In this document: positions 8,038-26,783 of the stretch, in pieces | Position numbering within the stretch: position 1 is the first letter of the stretch | How the letters are laid out: each line of letters starts with the position of its first letter | The notes under the pieces: generated by a model | What the model was told of the DNA's origin: nothing | What the model saw: only the letters and a program-made list of their open reading frames with translations | Database searches by the model: none | Made by a program: the position numbers and the translations under genes | Virus record (IMG/VR): IMGVR_UViG_3300030376_007003 | Coordinates: 1 to 26,783 of that record | Source: a virus | Lineage: Duplodnaviria > Caudoviricetes | Reading direction: 5' to 3' (one strand) | Length of the DNA stretch: 26,783 nucleotides

Positions 8038-8057
8038 ACTATTGGCAAGCTTGTCAC
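8038..8057 (-). promoter_or_regulatory. Late-gene GACA motif
   Basis: GTGACA-AGCTTGCCAATAGT-ATG. Confidence 0.6.
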
Positions 8058-8058
8058 C

Positions 8059-9786
8059 TTAATCTATTAAATCTAATCGTAAAACTGCTTCGTTTACTAG
8101 CGCATCACCGTTTGAATCTAACCAATTTATTCTAATAACCGTGCGGCCTCGCAATGCTGAAACATCATTACCCCCGTCCACAATGGTGTATGACCAATTC
8201 ATACCGGCATGGTTTCCGATAACCACATCAAAAAGGCCAGAGTTATTTCCGGTGGTTTCATTTGTTAAAGTTACCGCAAACTGTGCGGTATTTGCAATAT
8301 TTGGTAATGGTATGTGAACCCGGTAATAATTCCCATTACTATAAGTCATGCCATAAATTTCAGTCCATTCGCCAGAGCTTGTAGGTACATTTGTTTGACT
8401 TCGTAGTGGTGAGTCTAAAGTTCCACCTTCACCGTGGTATACTGTAATTGTGCTTGGTGTGGTAGTGCCTGGGCTAATATCTTGAACAATCGGGACGCCT
8501 GGGGCGGTTGGCAAAACATTAGTAGCAATATTCCAATCTGTATGCCTTACAAAATTAGAATCTATATTTATCCATACGCTAGAATTATTATTATTTTTTA
8601 ATAAAATTCTTGTAACCGTGCCATTTAACAAAGTTATTTTTGTAGCTTCGTAATTTTGATTAGTAGTAAAATTATTTGGTGGTGTAGTTGTTAAAATTTG
8701 GATTTGTGGGTTTTGTAAACCTTCATCCTCAAAAACTAAATTACCGGTTGTAGAACCATTGCTTTTTTGTGTTGGAAAAATATCTTGATTTGTAATGTCA
8801 AGTAATTGAATGTTGCTTGGTTCTAAAGCAAAAGTTTCTGTTTGGGTTCCTGGTGCAAATTCTAATTGTGTGCCGGTTGGATATGTAGTTGCATGGTTAA
8901 AATCTGCGTTTGCCATATAATAAATTTGTGCAGCAGTTGTTGAATTATCATGTTGGTTTGCATTGCTCCAAATTTTTGAACCGTCCGATCTTCTATATTG
9001 CCGGCCACCATTTTCCTGTGTTTGTAAAATTTTTAAAAATTCGCCCACAATAGTTGTTTTCCCGGCATTTTCCCAACTAGCGGTTACTATACGGTCACCA
9101 AAATTGTGTGTGTGGTATTGTCCAAGTCCAAAATTATATAAATAAAGCGGATAATAGTAGCCTAGTCCATTATTACCGTCATCACCATAAACAATATATG
9201 CCACATTTTGTAATGTGGTAATATCAGATGGGGCTGATGGTGCATCTTGTTGATTTGTGTTTATTTCGCTTATTTGAATTGTGCTTGGTGCTGCCGGTAT
9301 TATTGTTGGTGCAGTATTAACTGCAATAATTGTACTTGGTTCATTTGGCAGCGTTGTATTTACTTGGCTAAATAAATTTAATTGATTTCGTACTGTGACA
9401 TTACCTTGAGCAAATGTTGTGCTTTGTCCTTGTCCATTGTTTACTTGTATCTCAAAAGTTAAATTTACTGATTCAATATTAGCTAATGCAGTTTCTAATC
9501 CAATTGTGTTTAAATTTAAATCGGCAATGTAGCAATTATTTGCATAACTAAAAGATTCTGTTTTTGCATAACTTTGATTTGGCACTATGTTGCCGATTGC
9601 AAATATTATTTCATTGTTTGCTTGTCCGCTAAATTCTGCCAGGTTTCCGGCTCCGTCTGTAAACATTATTTGCAAAGGTAAAACATCACCAAAAAATAAA
9701 GTTGGCATATTCGCCGCTTGATTGTCTGCTTGCCCGGCAATCAAGGCGTTTTTTGGGTCTGCGGTTGTGTCAATGTAAATCTTCAT
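8059..9786 (-). CDS. Tail fibre/receptor-binding protein 2 (baseplate-anchor-like N-terminus, mosaic C-terminus)
   Basis: N-terminal ~135 aa paralogous to 9783-11165; N/T/G-rich beta composition; located at the end of the tail module. Confidence 0.65.
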   Translation of the reverse strand: MKIYIDTTADPKNALIAGQADNQAANMPTLFFGDVLPLQIMFTDGAGNLAEFSGQANNEIIFAIGNIVPNQSYAKTESFSYANNCYIADLNLNTIGLETALANIESVNLTFEIQVNNGQGQSTTFAQGNVTVRNQLNLFSQVNTTLPNEPSTIIAVNTAPTIIPAAPSTIQISEINTNQQDAPSAPSDITTLQNVAYIVYGDDGNNGLGYYYPLYLYNFGLGQYHTHNFGDRIVTASWENAGKTTIVGEFLKILQTQENGGRQYRRSDGSKIWSNANQHDNSTTAAQIYYMANADFNHATTYPTGTQLEFAPGTQTETFALEPSNIQLLDITNQDIFPTQKSNGSTTGNLVFEDEGLQNPQIQILTTTPPNNFTTNQNYEATKITLLNGTVTRILLKNNNNSSVWINIDSNFVRHTDWNIATNVLPTAPGVPIVQDISPGTTTPSTITVYHGEGGTLDSPLRSQTNVPTSSGEWTEIYGMTYSNGNYYRVHIPLPNIANTAQFAVTLTNETTGNNSGLFDVVIGNHAGMNWSYTIVDGGNDVSALRGRTVIRINWLDSNGDALVNEAVLRLDLID

Positions 9787-11165
9787 GGTGCAGAATTTTT
9801 ATATTGGTGGCCGGTTGGCAAGTTTTCTTCCAATCCCCATTTATGAGCCAAGTAACCTTCAATTTTTTGTCTTACAGTATCGCTCGTTGAATCTACAATT
9901 ATAATTTCAGCAATTTCCCCTTCTGGATAATTATTTTCTGCTCGATTTGTAAATATTTTTAAATCTACATTTGAAGCTAATTTACTTGTATAATTTTGGG
10001 CAATAGTACCTTGAAGTTGTTCACCATTTACAAGTAATCTGTATTTTCCATCATCAGAAAAATCAAGGTCTGCACAAAATATGTTAAAACCAATCAAGCC
10101 GGCATTACTTGCAACGGTTGTTGAACCGTTAGGTTGATTTGCAAAAGTCAAAATTCCTCTAAACTGTGAATTATTTCCTGCACCTATTTGCCAGTCATTG
10201 CTTGCGGCATCCATTGCAATAATTGCGTCTGCATTATTATCTACCGTTGTTACATTACAAACAATATATGCTTGTAAGTTTCCGCTTGTTGGATTTGTAA
10301 AATTATTTATTTCAAAATAATCATTACCATCAAGTGCAATAACATTTAAATTATTTTGCTCTGTTGTGTTTGTTATTGGGGCTGCGTTTGCAATTAAATT
10401 ATTATTATTACCGCTTTTGTCATTCCATTGAGTAACAATGTTTTGGTTATGTGTGATAGTTGAACTATCTGATGCATCCAACCACAATTCTGTATCTATT
10501 TCGCTTGGCAACCATTCTTGTAAAAATTCCCATTGTAAACCATTATGCGTAAAATGTATTCCTACACCGCCGCCGGTAGTTTGTGCGTGTACTAAATCAG
10601 ACTGCACAAGTGTTATAGTGTAGATTTCCCCCAGGACTAAGCCTCTAGCGGGTTTATCTTGTAAAGCCAAAATTTGTCTACCTACATCGGACAATAAAAA
10701 TGTAGTTGGTTCGCTTGTGTTTTGAATTGTTACATTTTGTGGCGCGCTTGGTAATTCATAAAATTTAATCAATTGGTTTTGTATAGTGCATGGCATTTGG
10801 CAAAGTGTATTTGTTTTTCCGTTTGCATATGATATTTGAATTTCAAAAGTAAAAGTTTTTTGCTCTACTTCGTTTATTTCAGATGCCATTTTAATAGTTG
10901 CCAAATTTAAAACTGCTTTTCCATCACCGTCTAAATTTGTTTGTGTCAAAATTTCCCTAGTGCTTAATTTACCAATGGCAATTTTTATTTCGTGGCCGCC
11001 TTGCCCGGTAAATGGCGCAAGTCCCCCACCCTCTCCTAAAAACACTATTTCAATTGGTTTAACATCGCCAAAAATTAAAGTTGGTACGGTGGCTAAATGA
11101 TTATTACCGGCAGCCCGGACCAAACTTTGTGTAGCGTCTAAAGTCGTATTACAAAATAGTTTCAC
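9783..11165 (-). CDS. Tail fibre/receptor-binding protein 1 with C-terminal LamG/ConA-like domain
   Basis: LWLDASD...QWNDKSGNNN...GEIAEIII...RQKIEGYLAHKWG pattern of lectin-like phage tail domains. Confidence 0.72.
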   Translation of the reverse strand: MKLFCNTTLDATQSLVRAAGNNHLATVPTLIFGDVKPIEIVFLGEGGGLAPFTGQGGHEIKIAIGKLSTREILTQTNLDGDGKAVLNLATIKMASEINEVEQKTFTFEIQISYANGKTNTLCQMPCTIQNQLIKFYELPSAPQNVTIQNTSEPTTFLLSDVGRQILALQDKPARGLVLGEIYTITLVQSDLVHAQTTGGGVGIHFTHNGLQWEFLQEWLPSEIDTELWLDASDSSTITHNQNIVTQWNDKSGNNNNLIANAAPITNTTEQNNLNVIALDGNDYFEINNFTNPTSGNLQAYIVCNVTTVDNNADAIIAMDAASNDWQIGAGNNSQFRGILTFANQPNGSTTVASNAGLIGFNIFCADLDFSDDGKYRLLVNGEQLQGTIAQNYTSKLASNVDLKIFTNRAENNYPEGEIAEIIIVDSTSDTVRQKIEGYLAHKWGLEENLPTGHQYKNSAP

Positions 11166-11186
11166 TTTAAAGGGTTTGTTTGTCTA
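11166..11186 (-). promoter_or_regulatory. Late-gene GACA motif
   Basis: TAGACA-AACAAACCCTTTAAA-GTG; the TAG doubles as the stop codon of the upstream gene. Confidence 0.62.
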
Positions 11187-12032
11187 TTGTTCACAATCAA
11201 AAGAAATAAATTTATAATTTACAGTCCCTTGTGCGTTGTTTGTTTGTTTGCTTTGGTATGGCTCGTTGCCCTCAATCCAACCTTGTTGCCCAATTGGAAT
11301 TTTTCCCCCGGTCCACTCTTTTATTGTTTCGCCTTGGCTTGTTTCCCATGTGGCAGAAAAATCAATATATTTTACCGGGTCTTTTACATCTCCATTTAAG
11401 TCGTATTGCTGACTAGTTTGGCCTAAATATATCAAATTTCTATCATAAAATTCTGAAAGCGGAGATGGTGAAACATTTGAATGCCAAAAATTAACTTGCA
11501 AAGCCAAATCATTATTAATCAAAACTGCTTTTGGTTCTGTTAAACTGTAAATTTCCTTTTGTCTCAAACCTACTATAACATTAGGAGAAATAGTAGGTAT
11601 AATAGAAGTTGTGTTTTGCCCATTAAATCCCACACAAGTTCTTTCATTTGGTAAAAAAATGTCCGGGTTTGGGTCTGCGGTTGTGGCCGGTTTTGTAAAA
11701 TGATAAATTATATTTTTCTGCAAACTGACATTTGTATTTTGTGAAATATATTCATAGGTATCTGTTGCAGAATTATAACTTTGTTCCGTATTGGTAGAAT
11801 TTACAGAATAATTTATATCAATTTCCAATCTATAAATAGTAAACCAAAATCTTAAAAGGTCTGCATATGTTAAATTGTTTAAATACTGATAAAAATTGTC
11901 AGAATAAACATTTCCAAATTGTGTAAAATCTTGGCTTTGTTCTGCAATAGTCGGATTTTGCAATGCCAGGTCTAATCTAAAATTGTAAGCTGCAAATTTT
12001 GGAATTGGTTGTATAATATCATTTAGAAGCAT
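11184..12032 (-). CDS. Putative tail-tip protein
   Basis: 282-aa ORF between TMP and fibres; call is by synteny only. Confidence 0.55.
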   Translation of the reverse strand: MLLNDIIQPIPKFAAYNFRLDLALQNPTIAEQSQDFTQFGNVYSDNFYQYLNNLTYADLLRFWFTIYRLEIDINYSVNSTNTEQSYNSATDTYEYISQNTNVSLQKNIIYHFTKPATTADPNPDIFLPNERTCVGFNGQNTTSIIPTISPNVIVGLRQKEIYSLTEPKAVLINNDLALQVNFWHSNVSPSPLSEFYDRNLIYLGQTSQQYDLNGDVKDPVKYIDFSATWETSQGETIKEWTGGKIPIGQQGWIEGNEPYQSKQTNNAQGTVNYKFISFDCEQ

Positions 12033-12317
12033 TTATGTAGTATAAAAGGTTTTTTGTACTGCTTGGCCGTTTTCGCAAATATACATTGTAAATTCTTGGC
12101 CGGTTATATTACTTGGGCTTGTTTGTGTTGGTTCTGGTGGTTGCGGTATTGTTAAAACTACACCATTAGAACCATAAGAAGCATTAAAATATTCTCCGTA
12201 ATTTATGGTAATGTTCTGCAATGCGTTGATTGCGTCAACTAATTCATTTGCTTTTGCAGCACTTAAAAGGGTTGGTGTTTGCCCGGCCCTTAATCGACTA
12301 ATAATTTCACCACTCAC
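12033..12317 (-). CDS. Small putative tail-tip protein
   Basis: 94 aa, LSAAKANELVDAINAL helix; call is by synteny. Confidence 0.55.
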   Translation of the reverse strand: MSGEIISRLRAGQTPTLLSAAKANELVDAINALQNITINYGEYFNASYGSNGVVLTIPQPPEPTQTSPSNITGQEFTMYICENGQAVQKTFYTT

Positions 12318-13273
12318 CTAAATTTTATTAAAGTGTTTTTAGTGGTGTAAATACTACCAATGAACTGCTCTACCACCGTTTCGTTTGGTTGAATTTCCAC
12401 ACCATCAGTAATGTAATTTTGATAGGTTGCTTCACTTGGTGAGCTTGTGGTACTTAAAAAATTAGTTTCTTCAGAGCTACCAATTTTGGTATATGTATTT
12501 ATAACCTCCTGCCCCTCAACCGTGCTTGTTGATTGCTCAACAGTTCTTTTTTTGTCAAAAATTTTAAATTGGTCTGTAATTTCTAAATTATCAAAATTAT
12601 ATCCATTTGCTAAAGCTGCAACTGCTTGCCAATCATCTTGGCCTTTGCCTTGCCTAGTAAATTTTAAAGTTATCTCAACATCATTAAAAAATATTTTGAA
12701 ATCTGAATTTTCTAATATTTCTGTTGGGTAATATATTTGTTCTTTATATAAAATTGCAGTTGATAGTGTTATTTCACCTTTTTGTAAAGTAATAGTTTTT
12801 GCATTGGTGTTATCTAGTAAATTGTGCCATTGCACTACCTGGCGGCCGGTTACTTGCTTGGTAATTGGGTTTCTCCAAATGCGTTCTTTAAAATCCGTTA
12901 AAGTGCTTGTGGTGTTCCCATCTTCATCAATCTCTGTTGTGTATTGTGGTTCTAAACTTTTAAAACCTGGAAAAGCGTAAGAAATTAAAACCGGTTGTTC
13001 ATATTGTGTAGTTGGAAATTCACAAAAAGTCCGGGTAAAACTAAAAAGGCCACCTGCTAAATTACTAAAATTTGATTCTTCAACTAAAATTGCATTGGCA
13101 TGAACCGGGTGAGTTATGCCAATTTGTGGAACTGTGTACTCACTAGCTAATTGCACAAAATCTTGAAAATATAATTTTAAAGAGTTAAAATTTTGTATTG
13201 GGTAAGTTGTTCTAGCTGCCTTAATTGCAACCGGTCGTACAAAATTACCATCATATGTAATATTACTTATCAT
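12314..13273 (-). CDS. Putative distal tail/hub protein
   Basis: First large beta-rich ORF after the TMP, with a THP..LVEE...FTRTF pattern. Confidence 0.55.
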   Translation of the reverse strand: MISNITYDGNFVRPVAIKAARTTYPIQNFNSLKLYFQDFVQLASEYTVPQIGITHPVHANAILVEESNFSNLAGGLFSFTRTFCEFPTTQYEQPVLISYAFPGFKSLEPQYTTEIDEDGNTTSTLTDFKERIWRNPITKQVTGRQVVQWHNLLDNTNAKTITLQKGEITLSTAILYKEQIYYPTEILENSDFKIFFNDVEITLKFTRQGKGQDDWQAVAALANGYNFDNLEITDQFKIFDKKRTVEQSTSTVEGQEVINTYTKIGSSEETNFLSTTSSPSEATYQNYITDGVEIQPNETVVEQFIGSIYTTKNTLIKFR

Positions 13274-13284
13274 TTCGCCCTAAA

Positions 13285-13575
13285 TCATTTTTTTTGTTTT
13301 TGTTTTTGCTCTTGCTTTTGCTTGTTTTGGATTTGCTGCTGCTTTGTTTGGATTTGTTTTTCTTTAGATTGTTCTTTTTTTTGTTTTTGTTTTTGTTTTT
13401 GTTTTTGTTCTAAATCTTTATTTCTATCCTTCTGTATTTTTTGTTTTTGTTCGTTCGTAATAATTTGGTTATTTTTAGTTTTTCCGGTTTTTGTGGTTAT
13501 TGAAAGCGAGCCTTTAGTTGTACCTTGTTTTTCAACCGTTACTTTTACTTTTCCAACTCTTCTGCTAGTTTTCAT
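13285..13575 (-). CDS. Gln/Lys-rich low-complexity basic protein
   Basis: Open frame fills the TMP-to-tail gap; (QK)n tract. Confidence 0.5.
   Translation of the reverse strand: MKTSRRVGKVKVTVEKQGTTKGSLSITTKTGKTKNNQIITNEQKQKIQKDRNKDLEQKQKQKQKQKKEQSKEKQIQTKQQQIQNKQKQEQKQKQKK
13381..13409. repeat. Hexanucleotide tandem repeat (TTGTTT)n, nearly 5 copies
   Basis: ttgtttttgtttttgtttttgtttttgtt, encoding QKQKQKQKQ. Confidence 0.8.
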
Positions 13576-16213
13576 TAACAAATCTACCTTGTAAAATTTC
13601 TATTATTTCTTCCATTGTTGCATCCTTTGCCAAGCTTTCAGTATCTACTTCTAAATTTATATAATTATTAACCGGTGTTGGTTCTGGTGCGCCAGGTCCA
13701 CCAGGTGGTAAATTTAAATTTTGTATTTCTCCGGCAATCCGGTTTCCTAATTGTGCTATTGCTTGGCTTAAACTGCCTTGCAAGTCAGAGAAATCCGGTA
13801 CTTGGCCATTTTCTTGTATGGCTGCCAATATATTTCTTAAAGTTGATTCAGTTGCTAAATGGTCTGTTTCAACTTCAAGATTAATTGAATTATTTACCGG
13901 TGTTTGGTGTATATCTCCCATTCCACCACCACCTGGAATTAATCGCATGATTGCCAACCTAATTGCTTCACCGGCATCTCTAATAGCCTGTTCACCGGCC
14001 GTAAGTGCTTGGCCAAGTCCTTGTTGCACTTGATTGCCTACTTGTTGCAAATCTTGTTCAGCATTTGCTTTTTGTCGCTGCAAATCTGCTTCTTTTTGTG
14101 CGGCTGCTCTTTGCAGTTCTCTTTGTTTGTCCGCTGCTTCTTGTGCAATTTCAGCCCTGCGATTTTGCAAAGCTTGCATTTGTTCAGCGTGTTGGTCTTC
14201 AATCTGCAACCTTTCTTGCTCTAGTTGTGCCAAATCTGCCCTGGTTTGGTCATCTAATACCAATTCTAGCTTTCTTTCTTTAACTGCGTTTAACCGGTCA
14301 ATTTCTCTTTGCGCGCGGTCCCCACCTTGTGCTTGTAAAGCTAAAATTTGTTGTTCAAGTCCTTGTACTGCTCTGGCTGCCCGGATTCTTGCTCGGTCAT
14401 TTGCATCTATTGCGTCTCCAATGTCTCTTTGTGCCTGTTCTTGTATTGCGGCATTTCTTAAATCAGCTTGTTGCTGCTCGTTCTTTTTTTGTAAAATTTG
14501 ATTTTCTAAACCTAGCTTTCTTTCTAAATGATTGACTGCAACACCACCTTGTAAATTTAAACGGTTTTGTAGTTGTTCAATTTGTCGGTTAATGTCAAGT
14601 TGCTGCTGCAATTTGTCTGCCTCTTCGTTTCGGCCTTGTGCGCGCATTTGTAAAATTCGCAATTTGTCAGATTCTAATTGCCGCCCGGCCTGGTGTAATC
14701 GGTTTTCCTCTTGTAATTTTTGGATAATTGCCTGGCGGTCGGCCTCCTGGTCTTTCAAATCAACTTTTCTTTGTTGTTCCGCTTTTATTTGCTGCTGCAA
14801 TCTTAATTCTTGGTTTTCAGCTTGTACTATTTGAGTAACTAAAGTTACAGCTTGCTGCCTGGTCATATTGCCCTGTTCCATTAACCGGTTTATTTGGTCT
14901 TCTTGGTCGTGCCTTTGTTCTACTACTCTTAGCGCATCTTCTCCACCGTTTCGCATTGCTTCAATGCGTTCTAAAGTCCGCTCTAAAGTTCTTTCTTCTT
15001 GTTGCCTTAAACCATTAATGGCATCAACTGCATTTTTTTCTTTGTTTGCTTCTTCAACAATTGCTTGGTGTTTCCCCAAATTTGCGTTTAATTGCTGATT
15101 TGCCCGGTCATTGGTCTGTAATTTTCTGCCGTTAACCTCATTAAATCGTTCTTGTAATTCATTAAACCTAGTCTGCAAATTTTCTTTTATATTTTGTTGT
15201 TCAATATCTTCTTCAAATATTTGTCTTTTTCGGTCTGCTAGAGTTCTGGCACTTTCAATTTGTGCTTGTTCTAATCTTTGAATTGAAGCTCTTAAAAGTC
15301 TTTCGCTTTCTTCAATATCTCCACCAATTAAGCCAAACAAGCTTATACTTCTAAATGGGTGTATAATTTCTTGTGCGGCTCGATTAGCAGCAGCCGCTAA
15401 TAGTTCAAACTTGGCCATTATTTCACCTTGTATAACACCACCAAGCACTCTTAATGCATTACCTACATTTGGTATAGCTAAAGCCAACAGATCAAATCCT
15501 AGTTTTGCATTTTGCAAAAATCTAATTAGCGGTGGAAAAACTTCAGCACTAAATATTGTAAATTGTCTTTTTGCCTGTTCTAATTTTCCACTAGCATTTT
15601 GCAAAGCTCTAACTGTGTCATTTTCTAAAATTAATCCTAAATTTCTAGCTGAATTTGCATAGTCATCTAAACTCGGTTTTCCTTGCTGAAACATTTGTGT
15701 AAGTGCTGCCCCCTCAGTATCCAAAAATTGAAAAGCAATTCTTAATCTTTCGGCCGGGTTTTGCATTCCTGTCAAAGCAATTCCAAAATCTCTGAACATA
15801 TCTTCTGTGGTCCTAGCTTGGCCTTGTGAGTCAACCATAGAAATATTTAAGCTTCTTAATGTGTCTGCTAATGCTCCACCATTTGCCTGGGCTTCAGCAA
15901 CTCTTCTGGTAAATCGCTGCAATGCAGTTGCTGCGGTATCTGCACTAATTCCACTTTGTTCTGCCGCAAATTGTAATTCTTGCAAAAATGTACTGCTTAC
16001 GCCTAAACGGTCAGACATATCGCCAATTGCTGCCCCAAAATCAATTATTTTTGTTGTGGTTGCTGCAATAGCTGCCGTACCAAGCGAACCAATAAACCGG
16101 TTTTGCATTGTTCGTGCAAACCTTTGAATTTTTGTTTCAGCTTGGTTTAAACCGTCATTAAAACCTCGGCTATCTAAGCCCAACATTACTTTTACATGGT
16201 CTGTAAATGCCAT
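13565..16213 (-). CDS. Tail tape measure protein
   Basis: Longest ORF; N-terminal LGLDSRGF..GL and IGDMSDRLGVS..LQELQFAAEQSG TMP motifs; long coiled coil; follows tube and chaperone. Confidence 0.9.
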   Translation of the reverse strand: MAFTDHVKVMLGLDSRGFNDGLNQAETKIQRFARTMQNRFIGSLGTAAIAATTTKIIDFGAAIGDMSDRLGVSSTFLQELQFAAEQSGISADTAATALQRFTRRVAEAQANGGALADTLRSLNISMVDSQGQARTTEDMFRDFGIALTGMQNPAERLRIAFQFLDTEGAALTQMFQQGKPSLDDYANSARNLGLILENDTVRALQNASGKLEQAKRQFTIFSAEVFPPLIRFLQNAKLGFDLLALAIPNVGNALRVLGGVIQGEIMAKFELLAAAANRAAQEIIHPFRSISLFGLIGGDIEESERLLRASIQRLEQAQIESARTLADRKRQIFEEDIEQQNIKENLQTRFNELQERFNEVNGRKLQTNDRANQQLNANLGKHQAIVEEANKEKNAVDAINGLRQQEERTLERTLERIEAMRNGGEDALRVVEQRHDQEDQINRLMEQGNMTRQQAVTLVTQIVQAENQELRLQQQIKAEQQRKVDLKDQEADRQAIIQKLQEENRLHQAGRQLESDKLRILQMRAQGRNEEADKLQQQLDINRQIEQLQNRLNLQGGVAVNHLERKLGLENQILQKKNEQQQADLRNAAIQEQAQRDIGDAIDANDRARIRAARAVQGLEQQILALQAQGGDRAQREIDRLNAVKERKLELVLDDQTRADLAQLEQERLQIEDQHAEQMQALQNRRAEIAQEAADKQRELQRAAAQKEADLQRQKANAEQDLQQVGNQVQQGLGQALTAGEQAIRDAGEAIRLAIMRLIPGGGGMGDIHQTPVNNSINLEVETDHLATESTLRNILAAIQENGQVPDFSDLQGSLSQAIAQLGNRIAGEIQNLNLPPGGPGAPEPTPVNNYINLEVDTESLAKDATMEEIIEILQGRFVNEN

Positions 16214-16233
16214 GACAAGTGTATGGTTGTCTA
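16214..16233 (-). promoter_or_regulatory. Late-gene GACA motif
   Basis: TAGACA-ACCATACACTTGTC-ATG. Confidence 0.6.
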
Positions 16234-16234
16234 T

Positions 16235-16822: not shown

Positions 16823-16831
16823 CGGAAAGAA

Positions 16832-17188: not shown

Positions 17189-17211
17189 AATATTTTTTTA
17201 TAAAAAGGTTT

Positions 17212-17234
17212 ATTTCTAAGGGTTAATCTGTCAC
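17212..17234 (-). promoter_or_regulatory. Late-gene GACA motif
   Basis: GTGACA-GATTAACCCT-TAGAAAT, nearly identical to the capsid-gene copy. Confidence 0.68.
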
Positions 17235-18205: not shown

Positions 18206-18214
18206 AATTAAAGA

Positions 18215-19272: not shown

Positions 19273-19282
19273 TGGCTTTTGC

Positions 19283-20161
19283 TTACGAGGCTTTTAAAGC
19301 TGCAATGTTGGAAGCTTTTGCAACTCCTACACCGTAGCAAGTTGTGAATGCTGCGAAGTGTTCACCTTTTGCAGCATCGTAATATCTGCGGTATGCACAT
19401 TGTATGCCCAGGCCTTCAACTTCAAACGGCGTATATTCTTCCAAAGTTGCTCCACCTTGAACATCTGGCATTCTGTTAACTACAACAATTGCGTCACTTG
19501 AACAAGCAAATGAGTGAATTTTTCCACTAGCAGTATTATTTGCGTTTTGTGGGTTTACGCTCATTCCAAAAAGGTTTGTAAACCGTCCGGATTCAACTAC
19601 ACCATTTCCGAAAGTTTCACCGGTCGCTGGAATTATTGCAGAATTTGCGGCTGCATTAACGATAAAGTGCCTATTCATTGGCGCGCCTTCTCCGTCAAGC
19701 TTTCCGGCTAATCCTTTAACATCAGAAATGGCAACTGAACCGGCTGCTTTAGCAGTAACTGAACCACCGGCAAATCCGCTTGCGGTTGCTCCGTCAAGTT
19801 CGTTAAAAATTACCCTTAAAAGATAACGGCCAAACTCGTTGGCATTTTGTGCAACATAACTTTGCAAAGTCAATGGGCTTTTGTTCAAGTCATTGTCTGA
19901 AAGATGAAATGGCTTGATTCTTTCAACAACTGAAACATCAATTGTGCTTGCATCAGTATCAGCATTTTGGCCATAACCGGTACTAGCAGAATAGTCTCTA
20001 GCTTCATCATCTGTATTTATTACCGGAACTGCAACTGTTGCGGCTCGCCCTACAACATCATTGCTGACATTTAAAGTAAATGCAGAAATTGGAGCTAACA
20101 TATTTTGCAATGTGCTAACTGCGGTTGAAATTGTAAGTTCGCTTGATATTGAATTTGCCAT
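19283..20161 (-). CDS. Major capsid protein (HK97 fold)
   Basis: 292 aa after the protease; TVAVPV, GRFTNLFGMSV and terminal YGVGV patterns. Confidence 0.82.
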   Translation of the reverse strand: MANSISSELTISTAVSTLQNMLAPISAFTLNVSNDVVGRAATVAVPVINTDDEARDYSASTGYGQNADTDASTIDVSVVERIKPFHLSDNDLNKSPLTLQSYVAQNANEFGRYLLRVIFNELDGATASGFAGGSVTAKAAGSVAISDVKGLAGKLDGEGAPMNRHFIVNAAANSAIIPATGETFGNGVVESGRFTNLFGMSVNPQNANNTASGKIHSFACSSDAIVVVNRMPDVQGGATLEEYTPFEVEGLGIQCAYRRYYDAAKGEHFAAFTTCYGVGVAKASNIAALKAS

Positions 20162-20189
20162 CTTTTTTTTGTGTTAAATAAAATTATTA

Positions 20190-20212
20190 ATTTCTAAGGG
20201 TTTGTCTGTCTA
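20190..20212 (-). promoter_or_regulatory. Late-gene GACA motif
   Basis: TAGACA-GACAAACCCT-TAGAAAT; the TAG is the protease stop codon. Confidence 0.68.
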
Positions 20213-21118
20213 CTTATTCCAATTCTTTAAGAAATAACTCATGTTATCGTTAATCATTTTTCCTTTTTCAGTCCATGAGTTGCACTTGGCCACCTGGTCC
20301 TCAATTGAAAGTGTTTCAACCTCAACTTGACCGGCTAATGGTTCAGCCCCTAAATCATCTTGCATCTTTCCAAACTTGGCTTGCCAAATAATTGTTTCGG
20401 CTTTTGCTTCGGCTAAACTTTCTGTTAATTGATTAAGTTCTAGCTCAAGGTCATCTGCTTTTTTATTTAAAAGGTCTGCGGTTTCTTTTGTCTGCTCAAG
20501 CTCAAGTTTCAAGCTTTCGTTTTCCTCCTGGGCCTTATTCAAATTAAAGCTTAAAAATTCCTCATGGTCTACTTCTTCTTCTTTTGCGATTGAGAACAAA
20601 CCGGTTGGGTTGGCTGCCGGTTCTGCAACTATTGAAAAAGCACTTACTTCTAACGCCCTAGCGTAAATTTCGTCAACGCCCTCTTGGCCGGAAAAATTTA
20701 CGGCTTCACCGTCTTGGTAAAAAAATGTTTCACCGGTAAATTCTGCACTAACACCAAATGCTTCTGGGGCTTTTTCGGCTAATTCAAAAAATGCGTCATA
20801 TTCTGCTTGATGGTGTTCTTTCCAAGAATTTAAAGCACTAAAATCTGCCGTTAGTTTTGTGTATTCGTCATCTTCCACAATTTTGAAATTGTCCCACAAT
20901 CCAATTGAGTCCAATGCCTCATTATCTTCGTGTGTATAGTAAGCTTTAATTTGCTTACCCTCGGTGGCTGCCAAAAATGATTTGATGCTTTCACCGTCTA
21001 TTTTAAGTCCGTGGCCTTTGGCCTCCGGTGTGGAAATTACACTAACACCGGTAATTTCACCGTTTTCTTTATCTACTTGCCCGGACCCAATTGATTTAAA
21101 ATAAAAAATTTCTTCCAT
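20210..21118 (-). CDS. Prohead protease with C-terminal acidic coiled-coil scaffold
   Basis: EAKGHG..ID, YYTH, FGVSAEF, VAEPAANPTGLFS, then an E-rich coiled coil. ATG 21118 preferred. Confidence 0.78.
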   Translation of the reverse strand: MEEIFYFKSIGSGQVDKENGEITGVSVISTPEAKGHGLKIDGESIKSFLAATEGKQIKAYYTHEDNEALDSIGLWDNFKIVEDDEYTKLTADFSALNSWKEHHQAEYDAFFELAEKAPEAFGVSAEFTGETFFYQDGEAVNFSGQEGVDEIYARALEVSAFSIVAEPAANPTGLFSIAKEEEVDHEEFLSFNLNKAQEENESLKLELEQTKETADLLNKKADDLELELNQLTESLAEAKAETIIWQAKFGKMQDDLGAEPLAGQVEVETLSIEDQVAKCNSWTEKGKMINDNMSYFLKNWNK

Positions 21119-21139
21119 AACTAGAAGGTGGTCTGTCAC
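21119..21139 (-). promoter_or_regulatory. Late-gene GACA motif
   Basis: GTGACA-GACCACCTTCTAGTT-ATG, immediately after the terminator. Confidence 0.62.
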
Positions 21140-21145
21140 CTAAAT

Positions 21146-21175
21146 AAAAAAAACCACCTTGTTTAAAAGGTGGCC
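21146..21175 (-). terminator. Rho-independent terminator ending the moron cassette
   Basis: GCCACCTT-TTAAAC-AAGGTGGT followed by a T-run on the minus strand. Confidence 0.8.
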
Positions 21176-21208
21176 TTCATTGAAATCATGGAATGTGTTG
21201 TTACATTT

Positions 21209-21358
21209 TCAAGGTGTTTGTTTTTTCTTTTCTCTGTTTGCTTTCCTATTGGCTTGCATTTTTGCTTGGGCTTCTGGGCTTATTGCCCTTTTGCTTTTTG
21301 CACCACCTTTTGACGCAATTGGGTTTTTAAATTCGTGTCCGCATTTTGGGCATTTCAT
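21209..21358 (-). CDS. 49-aa basic CxxC/KGG-motif protein (not in ORF track)
   Basis: MKCPKCGHEFKNPIASKGGAKSKRAISPEAQAKMQANRKANREKKKQTP*; ATGA coupling. Confidence 0.7.
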   Translation of the reverse strand: MKCPKCGHEFKNPIASKGGAKSKRAISPEAQAKMQANRKANREKKKQTP

Positions 21359-21492
21359 AGGTTAACCGTCCATTTTTCCTCCTGGTCAAGTCCTTCGCCG
21401 TGACAAACCGGGCAGCCATATAGTCCGGTAGCTACGGCTTTAATTTCTCCGCAAAACTCGCAGTTTTCTGTTTCGTTGTCTTCGCTTTCCAT
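21355..21492 (-). CDS. Small acidic zinc-finger protein
   Basis: CEFC...CPVCHGEG; ATG 21492 preferred over 21540. Confidence 0.65.
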   Translation of the reverse strand: MESEDNETENCEFCGEIKAVATGLYGCPVCHGEGLDQEEKWTVNL

Positions 21493-21518
21493 TGTATTTG
21501 CTGTGTAGGTTATATGGT

Positions 21519-21914
21519 TTAGCGTAGTAAAAAATCGCATCTTTTTAGGGCATCGCTCCAGCTATCTATATATATATCCTGGTCTTCTAGCTCTATAGTT
21601 TGGTCGCTTTCTATATATGGGCAATTATCGTTTAAATCGTAGTGTAAAGCGTGTTTTTCTATCAACTTACAAGTTTCTGCCCGGCTATATTTTTCTCTTT
21701 CTGCTATTTTTTGGTTTGTATGCTCAAGCTGTCTAAGCTCGTCTATTTCTTTTTGTCTGCTAGCTATTCTTTTGTTTAGGTCATCTCTTCGTTGTATTAG
21801 TCTAGCTACATCTTTTTGTTTACTATCTCTTTTTTGTCCGGCTTTTAAAGCCTGGTCGGCGTGGTGTTCCATTTCGGCGTTTAGTGGGCTATCTTGTGCT
21901 ATTAATGATTTCAT
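21519..21914 (-). CDS. Moron-encoded coiled-coil hypothetical protein
   Basis: ATG 21914 follows an A-rich leader; the ATG at 21965 lies inside the -10 box. Confidence 0.65.
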   Translation of the reverse strand: MKSLIAQDSPLNAEMEHHADQALKAGQKRDSKQKDVARLIQRRDDLNKRIASRQKEIDELRQLEHTNQKIAEREKYSRAETCKLIEKHALHYDLNDNCPYIESDQTIELEDQDIYIDSWSDALKRCDFLLR

Positions 21915-21960
21915 TTTTTTTATTTTGGTTGTTTGTATATTTTTTTGGTGTGAAGTAATT

Positions 21961-21989
21961 AACATAGCTTGTTATGTTAATCATGTCAA
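21961..21989 (-). promoter_or_regulatory. Sigma70-type promoter of the moron
   Basis: TTGACA-17 nt-TATGTT with an A-rich UP-like tract upstream. Confidence 0.75.
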
Positions 21990-22020
21990 GCTTTTCCAAA
22001 CTTTTTTTTAATATTTTTAT

Positions 22021-22056
22021 AAAAAAAGCCCACCGGGGAACCACTCCCGATGGGCT
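22021..22056 (-). terminator. Rho-independent terminator after portal
   Basis: AGCCCATCGGG-loop-CCCGGTGGGCT followed by a T-run. Confidence 0.82.
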
Positions 22057-22089
22057 AATAATGCGTATATTAACAATAACTAACCAAAT

Positions 22090-23454
22090 TTATTCTTCCG
22101 GTGGTGCGGTTCCATACTTCGCTTGCAAACTCTTCATAAGTGCCTTGTCTTTTTCCATTCGCTCGGCCTCGGCCTCAAAGTCCTTGCCATTGTTTGCAAA
22201 AATTTCTGTGTGGCTTGCCAGGTTTTCTTTCAACAAAATTGCGTCTGTTTGTGCGTCTTGCCTTCGGTCTAATGTCGGTGATGTTGTCCATTGGAAAGAA
22301 AAATTTTCGTGTTCGCCCTCCGGTGGTTCTGGTAATTCCCCGGCTGCGGTGGCCTTGTAACACCTCCAAGTCAATAATCTTCTTAAAAAGCTTTCTTCTA
22401 TAAATTCTCGCAACATTGCAAACCGGTGGTTTGTAACTGCTCTTGTGCTTTTGCTGCTTGAAAAACTTGCGTTACTCCATCCAACCAAATTTTCCACCGT
22501 TATGCCTACACTTGAACAAGCAAAAGAAATTAATTGTGTCAAAAATTGGTCCACTCCATCAATGTTGCCGCCCTGGATAGTCTCAACGCTTTCGCCTTGT
22601 TCTAATAATAAAATGCTACCGTTATATAATTTTGTATAAGTTGAACGCATTGGTTCACCGTCAAAATCGTTACCATCCCACCGGGCAGAATATGGTTGGT
22701 TTGAAGTAATAAATCCGGTCAATGCTGAACTAGTTTTAACCTTGGCGGTGTAAGCTGCCTGGACCGTGTGTATATCTTGCAATGTTTGGGCTGCACTTGC
22801 CAACATTGGTGTTCCTCTTAATTGTCCAATTCGGCTTTTGTTTGCAATGTGTATTAAATTCTTTGCTTCAATATAGCTACCCTTATCATAATCAACCATA
22901 CCATTTGATACCTGGCAAATACGGTAAGATTTAACTTGGCCGAAACGGTCCAAAACTATTCCATCCGATTCGTTGGCTTTTCTTTTGTCTGGAAATTTGC
23001 TGCTTGCAACTCTTTCAGATGGTACTAACTGAATGCTGCCTCCTTTTGTTAATATGCAAAATACTTCACCGGCTAAAAGTAAATCTGTAATGATTGAACC
23101 AAGCACCCGGCTAATTCCTTGACCGGTAATTTCAACCTTTTTTAAATACTTATTTAAAACCTTTTCTTTTTGATTATTAAAATCACTATTTTCTGTTGTG
23201 CTTCTTAATTGGCAATGGCCTAAATTACTTACAAATACTTGGGTAATTGCTTTTGCAATTGGGTTGTTTCGCTCCAAATCCCTCAAGCAGCTTAATAATT
23301 CCAAGCGGTTTGAATGCTGCAATACTCGCTCTTCACTTAGTGCTATGCTTGAACGGTCTAAGGCATCTTCATTTTTCCTCCAACTTGGCCGGGCAGCACC
23401 GTATCCCAAATTAATGGGTTGGCCCCTGTGGTCTAATAATTCTTGTCGCTGCAT
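22090..23454 (-). CDS. Portal protein, lambda family
   Basis: RDLERNNPIA, GIVLDRFG...Y, RIGQLRGTP, WSNASFSSS, TLDRRQD patterns. Confidence 0.92.
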   Translation of the reverse strand: MQRQELLDHRGQPINLGYGAARPSWRKNEDALDRSSIALSEERVLQHSNRLELLSCLRDLERNNPIAKAITQVFVSNLGHCQLRSTTENSDFNNQKEKVLNKYLKKVEITGQGISRVLGSIITDLLLAGEVFCILTKGGSIQLVPSERVASSKFPDKRKANESDGIVLDRFGQVKSYRICQVSNGMVDYDKGSYIEAKNLIHIANKSRIGQLRGTPMLASAAQTLQDIHTVQAAYTAKVKTSSALTGFITSNQPYSARWDGNDFDGEPMRSTYTKLYNGSILLLEQGESVETIQGGNIDGVDQFLTQLISFACSSVGITVENLVGWSNASFSSSKSTRAVTNHRFAMLREFIEESFLRRLLTWRCYKATAAGELPEPPEGEHENFSFQWTTSPTLDRRQDAQTDAILLKENLASHTEIFANNGKDFEAEAERMEKDKALMKSLQAKYGTAPPEE

Positions 23455-23702
23455 ATTATTGCTTGCTTAAATGTTGGATTTATTGGCGTACCTTGCAACC
23501 TAGCACTAATAATATTGTATTCTTGTTCTGCCCTATCCAATTCAAGTTTTACTTTTTCTAGGTCCATAAAAACCTTGGTATTTCCGGCACTTGTGGTGCT
23601 TGTCATTCCAATGGCCTCTATACGCTCAAGTGTTGCTTGCAGCCGGGTAATTCGTGCCGATATAAAATCTAGTTTGTCCTGGTCTGTTCTAAAATTTGCC
23701 AT
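23433..23702 (-). CDS. gpW-like head-completion protein
   Basis: 89 aa helix-hairpin-helix directly upstream of the portal. Confidence 0.62.
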   Translation of the reverse strand: MANFRTDQDKLDFISARITRLQATLERIEAIGMTSTTSAGNTKVFMDLEKVKLELDRAEQEYNIISARLQGTPINPTFKQAIICSDKNY

Positions 23703-23725
23703 TTCTTAAAGGGTAAGGCTGTCTA
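23703..23725 (-). promoter_or_regulatory. Late-gene GACA motif
   Basis: TAGACA-GCCTTACCCTTTAAGAA-ATG. Confidence 0.62.
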
Positions 23726-23726
23726 T

Positions 23727-24440
23727 TTAATTAAAAAGCAAAGGGTAGCGGCTTGTACGAAATTGCATCTCATTAAATAAATTTCTTCTTATTGCATTTT
23801 TAAAATTATTTATTCGCCCTTGTGTTTTTAACATTAAAATTCTTTGCGCGCCTGTTCCTTTACTCACTAGCATTCCCCGGCTTTCTAGTTTTATTTCATA
23901 GCTTCGCCTTTGTCCGGTTGCCCTTGGGCTTAAAAATGGTGTTACTTGGTTTCGTAAATGTGAGCTTTTTAGATAATTTGCCGGTTGTCTTGGCAATGGA
24001 ATATTAAGCATTCTTGACATAAAATAAAATTGTGATGCCCCCATTCCTCGGTTTGCTTTTTTACGATCAAATTTGTCTCGTTGTTCGCTTAAAAATTCTT
24101 CCCACTTTGTCCGGCCTAACCACTTTGTGTATGGTAAAATATATTTTGAACCGTTTATGCCATCCCCTAAAATCGGTGTGCCTACATGATAATTAAAACC
24201 ATTTTTTTTGCTTATCAATTTACCACCGGTATTTCTACGGTGTACAATCCCTTGCGGCATCACATATTTAACAATGTTTTTAATTTTTGCCTTTGGCGTT
24301 GATGTAGTTGCCCCACTTAGAATATGCCCGGCTTCAGCTTTAACTGTGCTTTCAAAATCTCTACCACTAATCCGGCTCAATGATTGAATAACTGCACCAA
24401 ATTTGGAAACATCAACTACTTGTCTATTTTGCCTGGCCAT
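23727..24440 (-). CDS. Basic protein resembling neck/tail-completion proteins (HK97 gp10/lambda gpZ-like)
   Basis: VDVSKF...L...SGRD...VK.EAG.IL....TP N-terminus; highly basic. Confidence 0.5.
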   Translation of the reverse strand: MARQNRQVVDVSKFGAVIQSLSRISGRDFESTVKAEAGHILSGATTSTPKAKIKNIVKYVMPQGIVHRRNTGGKLISKKNGFNYHVGTPILGDGINGSKYILPYTKWLGRTKWEEFLSEQRDKFDRKKANRGMGASQFYFMSRMLNIPLPRQPANYLKSSHLRNQVTPFLSPRATGQRRSYEIKLESRGMLVSKGTGAQRILMLKTQGRINNFKNAIRRNLFNEMQFRTSRYPLLFN

Positions 24441-26233
24441 TAAATTGTTTCTGGTCTGTGGGTTTCGCTTAAAGGTTTTCTTCTACCTTGTGGCTTTTTG
24501 TCCACTCTTCCAAAACTTGTGCTTTTTCTAAAAAAATAACCAAGTGCCAAAGCATAATTTAAACAATCAAACCAATGGTTTTCCCGGTCCACTTGTTTAA
24601 ATTCAAATTGAGTCCGTCCGTTCCGGTCCCTTTTTTCCACCTCCACCTCGGCTAATAAATGGCGGTAAAGTAAAGTATCAGAATTTTTATATGTGGCTAA
24701 ACCGGCAATGGTCATATTACGCATTTTAACCAATATTCTTTTAAAATGGGTATTATTTACATCAAATCTGCGGACCGTTCCGGCCTGGGCTTTGTCTTTC
24801 ATACCATCAACTGCATTGACTTGTTGAATGTCAAACTGCCCTTGCATGGTCTGCACACCACGAATTGCCAACCACTTGCTGCCAAGTCTTAATAAATTAC
24901 TTAAAACAAAACTTGTATTGTATGCAGAATCTACCCCGGCAAAGTCGGCCTTGTACCGTTTAAATAATCCCTCTAACTCGTCAAAATTATCTGCCCTTCC
25001 GTGGTCCACTATGTGGCAAGTTCCTTCGGTAGTGTGTGCCGTTACCATCCAATAAAATTCATATTTTTGTACATCACAAGTAAGTAATACAAAACTTTCC
25101 GGTGGAATTTCTCCTTTTGAATATTCACCTTCTAAATCTTTTAATTTTATCATGTCCGGCAATTCTTCTGTGTCATGCCGCCAGGCTAAAGCTTGAAAAG
25201 AATTTCTAAAATCTTGCAATTGATTAACTGCCTTGGCTTCTAAAAATTGCCGGGCTGCTTCTTTAATGCTCACATATGAAGAGTATAAACTATTTAAATG
25301 ATATCCTTGGTGTGCTTGGTCTGCTAGTGGGTTATCACTAATCCATTCTGCTTGGTCACTTCCAACCATTTGGTTTTTTACCATATCATCCGTAATTACA
25401 TGGTTACAATTTGGGCAAACTAACCGTGCGGTGTTTACGGTCCCGGCAATATCCAATCCTTCTGAAGTTTCTACTTTGTCCCATTCCACAAAAAAAGTTT
25501 CGCTGCTTTTACCAAATCCAATTTGGGCAAGTTGTCCGCACTTGGGGCAAGGTACATGGTATTTCTTATATGTGCTTTGTTTAAGGTGGTGGGTTATGGT
25601 TTCTGCTCCATCGTCAACGGTGGGTGTACTTGCCAATACAAATAATTTACTGCTGCCATATGCTTTAATCCTATTTGCTGCCAATTGTATGGCCCCGGCT
25701 TCATTCTTATTTTTTACTGCTGCCTTGTCGCATTCGTCAAAACAAACTACGGCTGCCGGGAAGCTTGCCAATTTGGCTGCGGATCCGGCCCCACCTAAAT
25801 GAACATTACAACCTTTTAAATTATAAGTAAGAATAGAAAAGTTATCCGGGTTTTCCGGTAGAATTTTGGCAACTTCTGTTGATGCCTTCATCATGGGTTG
25901 AATCCGTTCTTTACTTATTTGCCGGGCAGCCTGATCACTTGGCATTAAATATAAAACCGGCTTTGGATTTACGGCTACTGTATATAATAAGCCAATATGC
26001 ATTAATGTAGTTTTACCGGTTTGACTCGCAAAGCATATAGTTAGCTTGTCGGTCTTCTTATTGCCAAATTGGTTTAATGGTTCTACTAAGTAACGATTAA
26101 AACCAGGTTTAAAGTAGCCGGCATATGGTGTAACTTCTTTAGGCAAATAAATATGCTTCTCTGCCCACTCGGCCACGGTTAAATTTTCTGGTGGTCTAAA
26201 TATTTCCGCAGCCGCTTTTTCAAGTAAGTTCAT
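24440..26233 (-). CDS. terL: Terminase large subunit, lambda GpA family
   Basis: TVAEWAEK, Walker A SQTGKT, Walker B VCFDECD, LASTPT, CPKC/CPNC zinc pairs, TCDVQ, GVDSAY, ENHWFDC. Confidence 0.95.
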   Translation of the reverse strand: MNLLEKAAAEIFRPPENLTVAEWAEKHIYLPKEVTPYAGYFKPGFNRYLVEPLNQFGNKKTDKLTICFASQTGKTTLMHIGLLYTVAVNPKPVLYLMPSDQAARQISKERIQPMMKASTEVAKILPENPDNFSILTYNLKGCNVHLGGAGSAAKLASFPAAVVCFDECDKAAVKNKNEAGAIQLAANRIKAYGSSKLFVLASTPTVDDGAETITHHLKQSTYKKYHVPCPKCGQLAQIGFGKSSETFFVEWDKVETSEGLDIAGTVNTARLVCPNCNHVITDDMVKNQMVGSDQAEWISDNPLADQAHQGYHLNSLYSSYVSIKEAARQFLEAKAVNQLQDFRNSFQALAWRHDTEELPDMIKLKDLEGEYSKGEIPPESFVLLTCDVQKYEFYWMVTAHTTEGTCHIVDHGRADNFDELEGLFKRYKADFAGVDSAYNTSFVLSNLLRLGSKWLAIRGVQTMQGQFDIQQVNAVDGMKDKAQAGTVRRFDVNNTHFKRILVKMRNMTIAGLATYKNSDTLLYRHLLAEVEVEKRDRNGRTQFEFKQVDRENHWFDCLNYALALGYFFRKSTSFGRVDKKPQGRRKPLSETHRPETI

Positions 26234-26718
26234 TTTTTCCCTAAATTTGCGGTAAGGTCTGCATATACATTTTGCAATTCTTGGGCTAAAATTGTTTCAG
26301 CCCTAGTTGGGTCATCTGGGTTTAATGCGGTAGCTAAATTTTCCGGCATCTGGTCCAGGGCTTTCCTCAATGGGACCAAAATTTTGTGCAATGTTTCGGT
26401 TAATTGCTCGCTTTCAATTAGCCGGCCTTCTTTTTCTGCCAGGTTTAACGCTTCAATTCTATTTTTTAAATCTAAGTTTGTGGCTTGGCCTTCCATCACT
26501 TTGCCTCGCAAGTCCATTAAATCCTGTGCGTTATAAGTCCGGCCGCCAATGGTTATTTCTCCGGTTCCTCCGGTCATTCCAGGCTGCAAGCTTTCCCTTT
26601 CTTCTCTCCATTTCTTGGCGGCCTTAATTTCTTTCGGCATTCCAAGTTTTAAATAGTGGTAGTAAGTCGGCTTTTTTAATCCGTGCAACTCATGTGGTGC
26701 TACTTTTTTGTTAGACAT
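26230..26718 (-). CDS. terS: Terminase small subunit (Nu1-like)
   Basis: N-terminal wHTH ending GMP, then L.LAEKEGRLI...LDQMPENLA; ATGA-coupled to TerL. Confidence 0.82.
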   Translation of the reverse strand: MSNKKVAPHELHGLKKPTYYHYLKLGMPKEIKAAKKWREERESLQPGMTGGTGEITIGGRTYNAQDLMDLRGKVMEGQATNLDLKNRIEALNLAEKEGRLIESEQLTETLHKILVPLRKALDQMPENLATALNPDDPTRAETILAQELQNVYADLTANLGKK

Positions 26719-26760
26719 TTTACTATTGTTAAAGTCTAAAGCTTTAAAATTTTTTGTTAG
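26704..26760. repeat. 11-bp direct repeat TTTTTTGTTAG (26704-26714, 26750-26760), candidate TerS-binding sites
   Basis: Exact repeats near the genome end; also a TTAGAC/GTCTAA inverted pair at 26711-26739. Confidence 0.45.
26719..26738 (-). promoter_or_regulatory. Variant late-gene motif upstream of terS
   Basis: TAGACT-TTAACAATAGTAAA-ATG, with the same 14-nt spacing. Confidence 0.5.
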
Positions 26761-26775
26761 TGCAAAAATTCACGG

Positions 26776-26783
26776 ACGCCCAC
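26776..26783. repeat. Right copy of 8-nt terminal direct repeat ACGCCCAC (probable cohesive end)
   Basis: Identical to 1-8. Confidence 0.75.

Follow-up and report, generated by a model that had tools for sequence, protein, structure and literature searches.

A -10-type element is generally considered essential to a bacterial promoter, the sequence further upstream being read at -35 or, by activators, near -22 or beyond, and the late promoters of phage P1 retain a normal -10. In the sections of the P1 literature cited here, the activator Lpa binds a site centred at -22 (PMC3152322), and the 11 late promoters carry a 9-bp inverted repeat, Lpa acting with the host protein SspA and the lpa gene preceding pacA and pacB (PMC10695390, PMC8198154). 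Here we describe a differently built element in the late region of the IMG/VR virus record IMGVR_UViG_3300030376_007003, the whole 26,783-nt stretch of which is referred to as the window. It consists of a -35-like hexamer (the box, TAGACA or GTGACA) that in most cases stands 14-17 nt before the start codon of a late gene. The feature is real and conserved, and is most likely an unusual-geometry variant of an activator-dependent phage late promoter. Judging from sequence patterns, the boxes are quite probably promoters of some kind, and on balance we favour the view that they are compact, activator-dependent late promoters giving leaderless mRNAs. The candidate activator is a 221-residue protein, here called the regulator, encoded at 248-913.

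The box in the window and in its relatives

The original prediction, made from the letters of the window, had listed eight intergenic copies of the box in the late region, 14, 15, 14, 15, 17, 14, 45 and 40 nt before an ATG. All eight were located, and all lie on the minus strand, which encodes all the main genes (Table 1). The distances are correct, except that the start codon after the copy at 11181 is GTG. ACCCTT follows four copies, as had been noted. The word intergenic needs qualifying: the TAG of the 11181 box is the stop codon of the upstream open reading frame (ORF) and that of the 20207 box is the stop codon of the protease gene, so that these two copies are not purely intergenic. One copy had been placed right after a terminator, and a terminator-like hairpin is indeed separated from the protease box by 10 nt, which contain no -35 element. 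Seven of the eight copies form one conserved element; the TAGACT copy at 26733 is probably not simply an eighth box and is treated separately below. The capsid, protease and tube genes are named from position and homology alone, and the 89-residue gene ahead of the portal gene is gpW-like by position. Thirteen more coding-strand copies are not at such positions, one of them lying 1 nt before an early start at 5323.

Table 1. Positions of the boxes and of associated features in the window
Feature	Positions	Strand	Context
TAGACA box	23720..23725	-	17 nt to ATG 23702 of the 89-residue gene ahead of the portal gene; ACCCTT 23709-23714
GTGACA box	21134..21139	-	15 nt to ATG 21118, putative prohead protease/scaffold gene
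Intrinsic-terminator-like hairpin with T run	21149..21178	-	at the end of the moron unit, immediately before the protease box
TAGACA box	20207..20212	-	45 nt to major capsid ATG 20161; ACCCTT 20196-20201; AU-rich leader
GTGACA box	17229..17234	-	40 nt to ATG 17188, putative tail tube gene; ACCCTT 17218-17223
TAGACA box	16228..16233	-	14 nt to tape measure ATG 16213
TAGACA box	11181..11186	-	15 nt to GTG 11165, virion structural/fibre gene; ACCCTT 11170-11175
GTGACA box	8052..8057	-	14 nt to ATG 8037, conserved 108-residue gene
Candidate late activator (221 residues)	248..913	-	after RusA, before terS, one short ORF upstream of terS
Conserved genome-end (cos-like) element	26733..26783	-	ends in TAGACT 26733-26738, 14 nt before terS ATG

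Within the window, (TA/GT)GAC(A/T) occurs 21 times on the coding strand versus 5 times on the other strand. The hexamer stands 14-17 nt before 6 of 23 late starts against 0.072 expected (Poisson 2e-10, for a motif chosen post hoc), and within 50 nt of 8 of the 23 against 0.92 expected. When the upstream regions were shuffled, none of 10,000 shuffles reached the observed 8 (within 56 nt; mean 1.17, maximum 7). A generic promoter scan was uninformative, with 54 sites found and 54.9 expected. Since the motif had been chosen post hoc in this window, relatives provide the stronger test.

Scans with TerL yielded 25 viral and 24 metagenome loci, some of them the same contigs, and five long records were retrieved. 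The survey of relatives that had been proposed as a check on the original prediction shows that they keep the box, ahead of the same genes and at the same spacing. The consensus of 25 non-redundant sites, drawn from relatives other than the window's four closest kin and the window itself, is RAG-TAGACA-N5-RCCTT, with G, A and C invariant. Spacing to the start codon is 14-17 nt at 21 of these sites, and the four with long leaders belong to capsid and tube genes only. RCCTT stays at box+6 to box+10 even where the ATG is 34-45 nt off. Because its distance to the box is fixed while the ATG is far away, RCCTT is a second element, part of the box rather than of the start codon. We also considered dyad symmetry of the box, which is unsupported: arm pairing in RAGTAGACA gives 43 of 100 matches versus 40.1 after shuffling (p 0.20), and the box is not a palindrome.

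With a held-out matrix made from the 25 relative sites, window boxes ranked 1st to 4th on the coding strand, the copy at 20207 being the highest. The GTGACA copies at 21134 and 8052 came 7th and 20th, and the GTGACA copy at 17229 and the TAGACT copy at 26733 fell outside the top 20; because the GTGACA copies rank in this way, the variant is local to the window's lineage. In distant relatives, in Verrucomicrobia phage P8625 and in Akkermansia phage Moulinsart, the TAGACA box system was not found, and P8625 has no matrix site scoring at least 11. A pattern scan of IMG/VR returned 120 stretches, of which 11 precede an ORF of at least 60 amino acids near the start of its frame; three of these 11 are family members and the other matches look like chance. 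When IMG/VR was scanned with alignments of capsid, TerL, regulator and portal, the only additions were the capsid-only contigs L033 and L036 and the distant loci L204 and L205.

Two further sets of words deserve mention. The 3' part of the tape measure gene contains box-like words in L003 (10244 and 10790, of which one precedes an in-frame ATG by 14 nt), in the window (13642-13647) and near the 3' end of the gene in G001; these could be internal starts or coincidences of Val-Asp coding. Moulinsart (L040, ON453896.1), whose host is cultured, has five plus-strand copies of AAGAGA(C/A)(G/A)G plus a G run, at 469, 2786, 4641, 10608 and 15315. They occupy slots similar to those of the window, namely a gene upstream of terL, a small gene ahead of the portal gene (14 nt), the protease gene (35 nt), a tail gene (16 nt) and the tail fibre gene (16 nt), and the G run could be Shine-Dalgarno-like.

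Ordinary promoter-like layouts at the same slots and the probable start of transcription

Next, we compared the slots that hold boxes with the same slots in box-less lineages. Ahead of the protease gene, all five box-less lineages examined (G002, G004, G005, L012 and L036) have TTGNNN, 17 nt, a second hexamer and then 6 or 7 nt to the ATG, so that the -35 lies 29-30 nt before the ATG. At this slot the window, L003, G001, G003, L020 and L021 have a box at 14-16 nt, and G003 combines the two, with the -35 at 29 nt and, at 14 nt, a box that reads TTGACA. Within the family, TTGACA at 14 nt was seen nowhere but at the protease slot of the G003 clade. Canonical TTGACA also stands 29 nt before the 108-residue gene in G005 and L054, the tape measure gene of G004 has the canonical layout with GTGACA at 30 nt, and five genes of P8625 have this layout at 30 nt. 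By hand count, 9 of 13 canonical-slot promoters have A at the -11 position. Where relatives lack the box ahead of the 89-residue gene, the slot is a stop-start overlap, that is, translational coupling. Judging by the canonical layouts at the same slots, the box stands in for a leaderless sigma-A promoter, and its similar hexamer lies about 15 nt nearer to the start. The box itself does not fit the canonical sigma70/sigmaA layout, 14-17 nt being too short for a spacer and a -10; the distances in the window and in relatives thus bear out the earlier argument that the spacing excludes a 17-nt spacer followed by a -10.

The late promoters of P8625 (L196) have a feature of their own. Internal promoter-like sites upstream of gp08, gp15, gp16, gp22 and gp23 overlap a GTATC...GATAC inverted repeat, and at gp08, gp15, gp22 and gp23 a TTGACA-type word lies 30 nt from the ATG. 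The repeat spans the spacer and -10 region and is a candidate binding site for a regulatory protein. The text of the P8625 genome paper makes no mention of it, and the words 'promoter' and 'leaderless' are absent from that text.

A pyrimidine occupies -1 at 18 of 20 start codons lying 14-15 nt from a box, as would be expected for transcription starts; among the other genes that do not overlap, 36 of 86 have one (Fisher 1e-4, with sites that are related rather than independent and starts called mechanically). A pyrimidine-purine (YR) step is found at box+14/15 or box+15/16 in 26 of 32 sites; for Akkermansia, the sections of the published study cited here give a YR start rule and 10% leaderless starts (PMC4782308). 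A Shine-Dalgarno word (GGAG, GAGG or AGGA, 4-14 nt upstream) precedes 5 of 36 window genes and none of the box genes, in agreement with the original prediction. Taking the start codon as +1, nAnnnT occurs 5-8 nt before it at 5 of the 21 compact sites, compared with 7 of the 13 promoters at canonical slots. A metatranscriptome with 5% of the words gave three short contigs of at least 99% identity, which fall within the tube, capsid and protease genes and have a depth of 2-4; such contigs cannot reveal 5' ends and were used for no conclusion. Altogether, the conservation of the element, the exchange of promoters at the protease slot, the -1 pyrimidine and the lack of Shine-Dalgarno words lend support to the phage-specific compact promoters and leaderless mRNAs that had been proposed.

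The candidate activator and competing explanations

The regulator gene is present in G001, G003 and L007 and absent from G002, G004, L054 and G005; G002 and G004 are complete, and in L054 the interval from RusA to terS is assembled and lacks it. Of the 38 window proteins, it is the only one with that pattern. Five regulator-positive lineages carry the box at 17 of their 18 slots, and three regulator-negative lineages at 1 of 14, with the slot pattern widened to [TG][AT]GAC[AG] after relatives had been inspected. For the 89-residue gene the figures are 5 of 5 and 0 of 3 lineages. The tube slot carries TAGACA in L003, G001, G003 and L016, plus one copy in the regulator-less G002, and the 108-residue gene has a box in L007, G001 and G003. 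Seven lineages are of uncertain regulator status; four have the box, and three have it at 0 of 11 slots.

AlphaFold predicts that the regulator consists of N-terminal helices, a central helix-turn-helix (residues ~101-125) and a C-terminal winged helix similar to those of Xis and MerR (residues 148-204). The model of the C-terminal domain matches pSK1 Par (Z 6.9, root-mean-square deviation (rmsd) 1.7 over 53 residues), with RacA (Z 5.8) and TorI next; with Z below 8, it is likely to be an Xis/MerR-type DNA-binding fold. HTH_17 was detected in 12 of 48 homologs with weak E values. The central domain has a predicted local distance difference test score of 86.8 and matches sigma4 weakly (Z 2.6-3.2, rmsd 4.4-5.8, Foldseek E near 1; Atlas scores <0.9). 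Fold searches with the whole protein and with the central domain gave no significant match, a sequence search of the PDB gave none, and a homodimer model of residues 25-130 scored 0.02. A word-indexed search found 49 homologs, and a profile search of 1.84 billion representatives gave 40 matches, including 8 at <=1e-30. No phage record matched the regulator, and the Pfam and PHROGs matches listed for 48 homologs include no Lpa family.

Several other possible readers of the box were rejected. An ORF with a Sigma70_r4 match (4498-4953, minus strand) is absent from all box-bearing relatives tested. The small terminase subunit, TerS, does not fit either, as long versus short TerS does not track the boxes. 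The box bears a resemblance to a single-subunit (SP6/T7-like) promoter, but Pfam and PHROGs show no RNA polymerase gene in the complete genome. The Sigma70_r4 protein stands alone, has an intact RERIRQIE helix, lies upstream of the replication initiator gene and is absent from all relatives tested. An ORF of ~47 residues at 21218-21358 (minus strand) just before the protease gene falls below the 50-residue cutoff and encodes CPxC and a KGG-type basic tail; it is conserved in G001, G003, L012, L016, L019, L020 and L021.

We propose the following mechanism. The regulator, presumably produced at the end of the early operon, would bind a two-part site at about -23 to -5, perhaps with one domain per half-site, and would bring the host RNA polymerase holoenzyme to start about 15 bases downstream, at or beside the start codon. 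With +1 at box+15/16, the hexamer would lie at about -20 to -15 and RCCTT at about -9 to -5, one helical turn apart. Host sigma-A would presumably still be required for melting, since Pfam and PHROGs reveal no RNA polymerase or full sigma gene in the complete window genome. Most late mRNAs would be leaderless, the capsid and usually the tube gene keeping longer AU-rich leaders, and every abundant virion protein would get its own leaderless message. A bolder form of the proposal, which we regard as possible yet doubtful, is that one small phage protein redefines the bacterial promoter and initiates leaderless transcription, by means of a shifted -35-like word and a word at -9 to -5 with no need for a host -10, and that relatives have swapped gene by gene to or from ordinary -35/-10 promoters as the protein was lost.

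A number of observations weigh against the proposed mechanism. The canonical -35 layout is seen at only 4 of 14 regulator-negative slots, most of the others being translationally coupled or signal-free, and the narrow pattern (TA/GT)GACA gives 15 of 18 regulator-positive slots by hand count. G002, which is complete and regulator-less, keeps a well-formed box 25 nt before its tube ATG (L044 reverse, 14346), either a relic or a counter-example. In a TerL tree of 17 rows, from which outgroups and partial and near-identical rows were left out, two changes are needed for both traits, the starred branches provide one independent pair, and the data do not reject a tree that unites the regulator-less lineages in a single clade (p-AU 0.46); co-loss of box and regulator may therefore be a single evolutionary event. 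GTAGAC also encodes Val-Asp, which produces matches in coding regions. The YR step at box+14/15 or box+15/16 is present in only 7 of the 12 sites with the ATG at least 16 nt off, and YR steps also occur at box+5/6 in 14 of 32 sites and at box+12/13 in 16 of 32. Finally, the ORF encoding CPxC and KGG passes the complete-genome filter for a box reader, although it occurs in the box-less L012, and it remains a minor alternative to the regulator.

Some of these points are also those on which other explanations rest. The YR step at box+5/6 would fit a hexamer that is itself a phage-specific -10, with the purine of RCCTT, about 6 nt further on, as the first transcribed base and leaders of 8-11 nt. 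TAGACA opens with TA as a -10 box does, box+6 is a purine in 19 of 25 sites, and TAGGGT of Thermus phage Lalka27a, in the part of its description cited here, is a precedent (10.64898/2026.04.20.719267). We give this explanation a small chance. The sixth base should then be the -7 T but is A in 23 of 25 sites, and GT or TT fills positions 1-2 in four sites, so that the TAnnnT of the Lalka27a and T4 gp55 type does not describe the box; the three GTGACA copies of the window and the TTGACA of the G003 protease slot lose the -11 A. Canonical promoters of the same genes put the ATG 6-7 nt past the -10, that is, they are leaderless, and short leaders devoid of a Shine-Dalgarno word would leave the tight 14-17 nt spacing and the -1 pyrimidine unexplained. 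The small number of independent losses, one or two, and the box of G002 would instead suit a factor supplied by the host, for instance an alternative sigma present in some verrucomicrobia, in which case regulator gene and box would go together only through a shared dependence on phage lineage or host range. That the regulator is the only window protein to track the boxes, and is encoded where late activators sit, makes this improbable in our view, as does P8625, which has a known Puniceicoccales host and lacks a matrix site. We know of no sigma family with so short a fixed geometry.

The box might also act on RNA, as a processing site just before the AUG or as a signal for translation reinitiation beside the upstream stop, an idea to which we attach about as little weight as to the host factor. 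Most copies contain or directly follow a stop codon, and the box-less slot of the 89-residue gene uses a stop-start overlap instead of a promoter. The copy behind the terminator, on the other hand, has no upstream transcript to process, the alternative state at the protease slot is a DNA promoter, the tracking protein has predicted DNA-binding folds, and the variants TAGACG and TAGACT disrupt ACA, which is the cut specificity of MazF. Very improbable, lastly, is that the boxes are operators at which the regulator, as a repressor, keeps late genes off until it is titrated by replication. A protein over -20 to -5 would occupy the place of polymerase, G003 combines a -35 with a box at its protease slot, and the inverted repeat of P8625 lies across spacer and -10 region. 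A -35-like word at 28-31 nt is, however, found at just 2 of the 18 slots in regulator-positive lineages, so that a repressor would mostly have no promoter to act on, and would have none behind the terminator of the window.

Genome setting and comparison with known systems

The window is from a marine, lambda-like siphovirus with all main genes on the minus strand. The metagenome contig L052, in which TerL, TerS, RusA and the regulator are 100% identical, bridges its left end to terS, and because of this link the window is in effect a whole, complete genome. Pfam and PHROGs assign terS (26230-26718), a lambda gpA-type terL, portal, tape measure, a virion structural protein, Sak, a replication initiator, a DnaC-like loader, a methyltransferase and RusA. 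Within the cytosine methyltransferase gene is nested a 230-residue alternative-frame ORF (2070-2762, minus strand). Between the portal and protease genes lies a moron-like unit (21149-22056, minus strand), the gene content of which differs among relatives; it is flanked on either side by a terminator-like hairpin and includes a TTGACA-17-TATGTT promoter (21961-21989) of its own. The host is probably a verrucomicrobium, as judged from weak hits. P8625 is the sole capsid match among 50,697 phage records (25.7%, E 8e-3) and has 7 proteins in common with the window at E 5e-4 or better, and the top TerL match is an Akkermansia phage (28.7%). A prophage search of GTDB genomes found none and returned one weak Pirellulales match.

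The copy at 26733 belongs to a genome-end element of ~50 bp that is conserved in 12 of 12 aligned loci, regulator-positive and regulator-negative alike. In the same columns, the box-less G004 and G005 have TAGACT and L054 has TGGACT, and because box-less relatives conserve this word it is probably not simply the eighth box of the original prediction; it may double as a promoter and is ambiguous as a box. G001 has the genome-end element plus a separate TAGACA box. The contigs of G001, L009 and L012 start inside the element, as would be expected of a cos end.

If the proposed geometry is true, a -35-like word at -20 to -15 with no -10 would be a new way of positioning a multisubunit RNA polymerase, and it might be common to many Verrucomicrobia phages in variant words. 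The phage family offers a built-in control, with the same slot in two promoter states and one candidate protein tracking the switch. Phages of hosts that lack Shine-Dalgarno sequences might set the amounts of their virion proteins by way of their own leaderless messages, with a signal of ~25 bp, and a switchable promoter of this size could serve as a tool in Verrucomicrobia. Literature searches, which covered few subscription journals, returned no description of a RAG-TAGACA-N5-RCCTT element.

Of the systems described, P1 Lpa is similar in its many scattered late promoters (P1 has 11, the window a putative 7-8 within 27 kb), in a conserved phage-specific site that in P1 lies near -22 in place of the -35 and here would lie at about -23 to -15, and in an activator gene just upstream of the terminase genes (here the candidate at 248-913). 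The P1 site is a 9-bp inverted repeat, whereas the box is asymmetric and resembles the -35 word itself, has no recognisable -10 and is predicted to give leaderless messages. Because it has neither inverted repeat nor recognisable -10, the box is not a member of the P1 Lpa class. Lalka27a, as far as the cited part of its description goes, likewise has late promoters placed gene by gene, a phage-specific consensus for them, leaderless mRNAs (predicted here) and a presumed phage factor that alters polymerase specificity; unlike the box, which lies 14-17 nt before the start codon and has no -7 T, its TANNNT -10 (TAGGGT) lies six bases before +1 (10.64898/2026.04.20.719267). T4 AsiA/MotA, Thermus P23-45 gp39 and Caulobacter GcrA resemble the proposed system in that a DNA-binding factor works with the host holoenzyme at promoters that have no functional -35. 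In the sections cited, these sigma-remodelling systems keep a -10 or extended -10 (PMC7403470, PMC3950348), and the candidate here differs from their factors in its predicted helix-turn-helix and Xis/MerR-like winged helix. The canonical leaderless sigma-A promoters of box-less relatives, of P8625 and, in the part of the study cited, of Akkermansia (PMC4782308) lie at the same slots as the box, likewise have a hexamer resembling TTGACA and have the start codon where +1 is expected. They differ in having this hexamer at 29-30 nt with a 17-nt spacer, while the box is about 15 nt closer and is followed by RCCTT instead.

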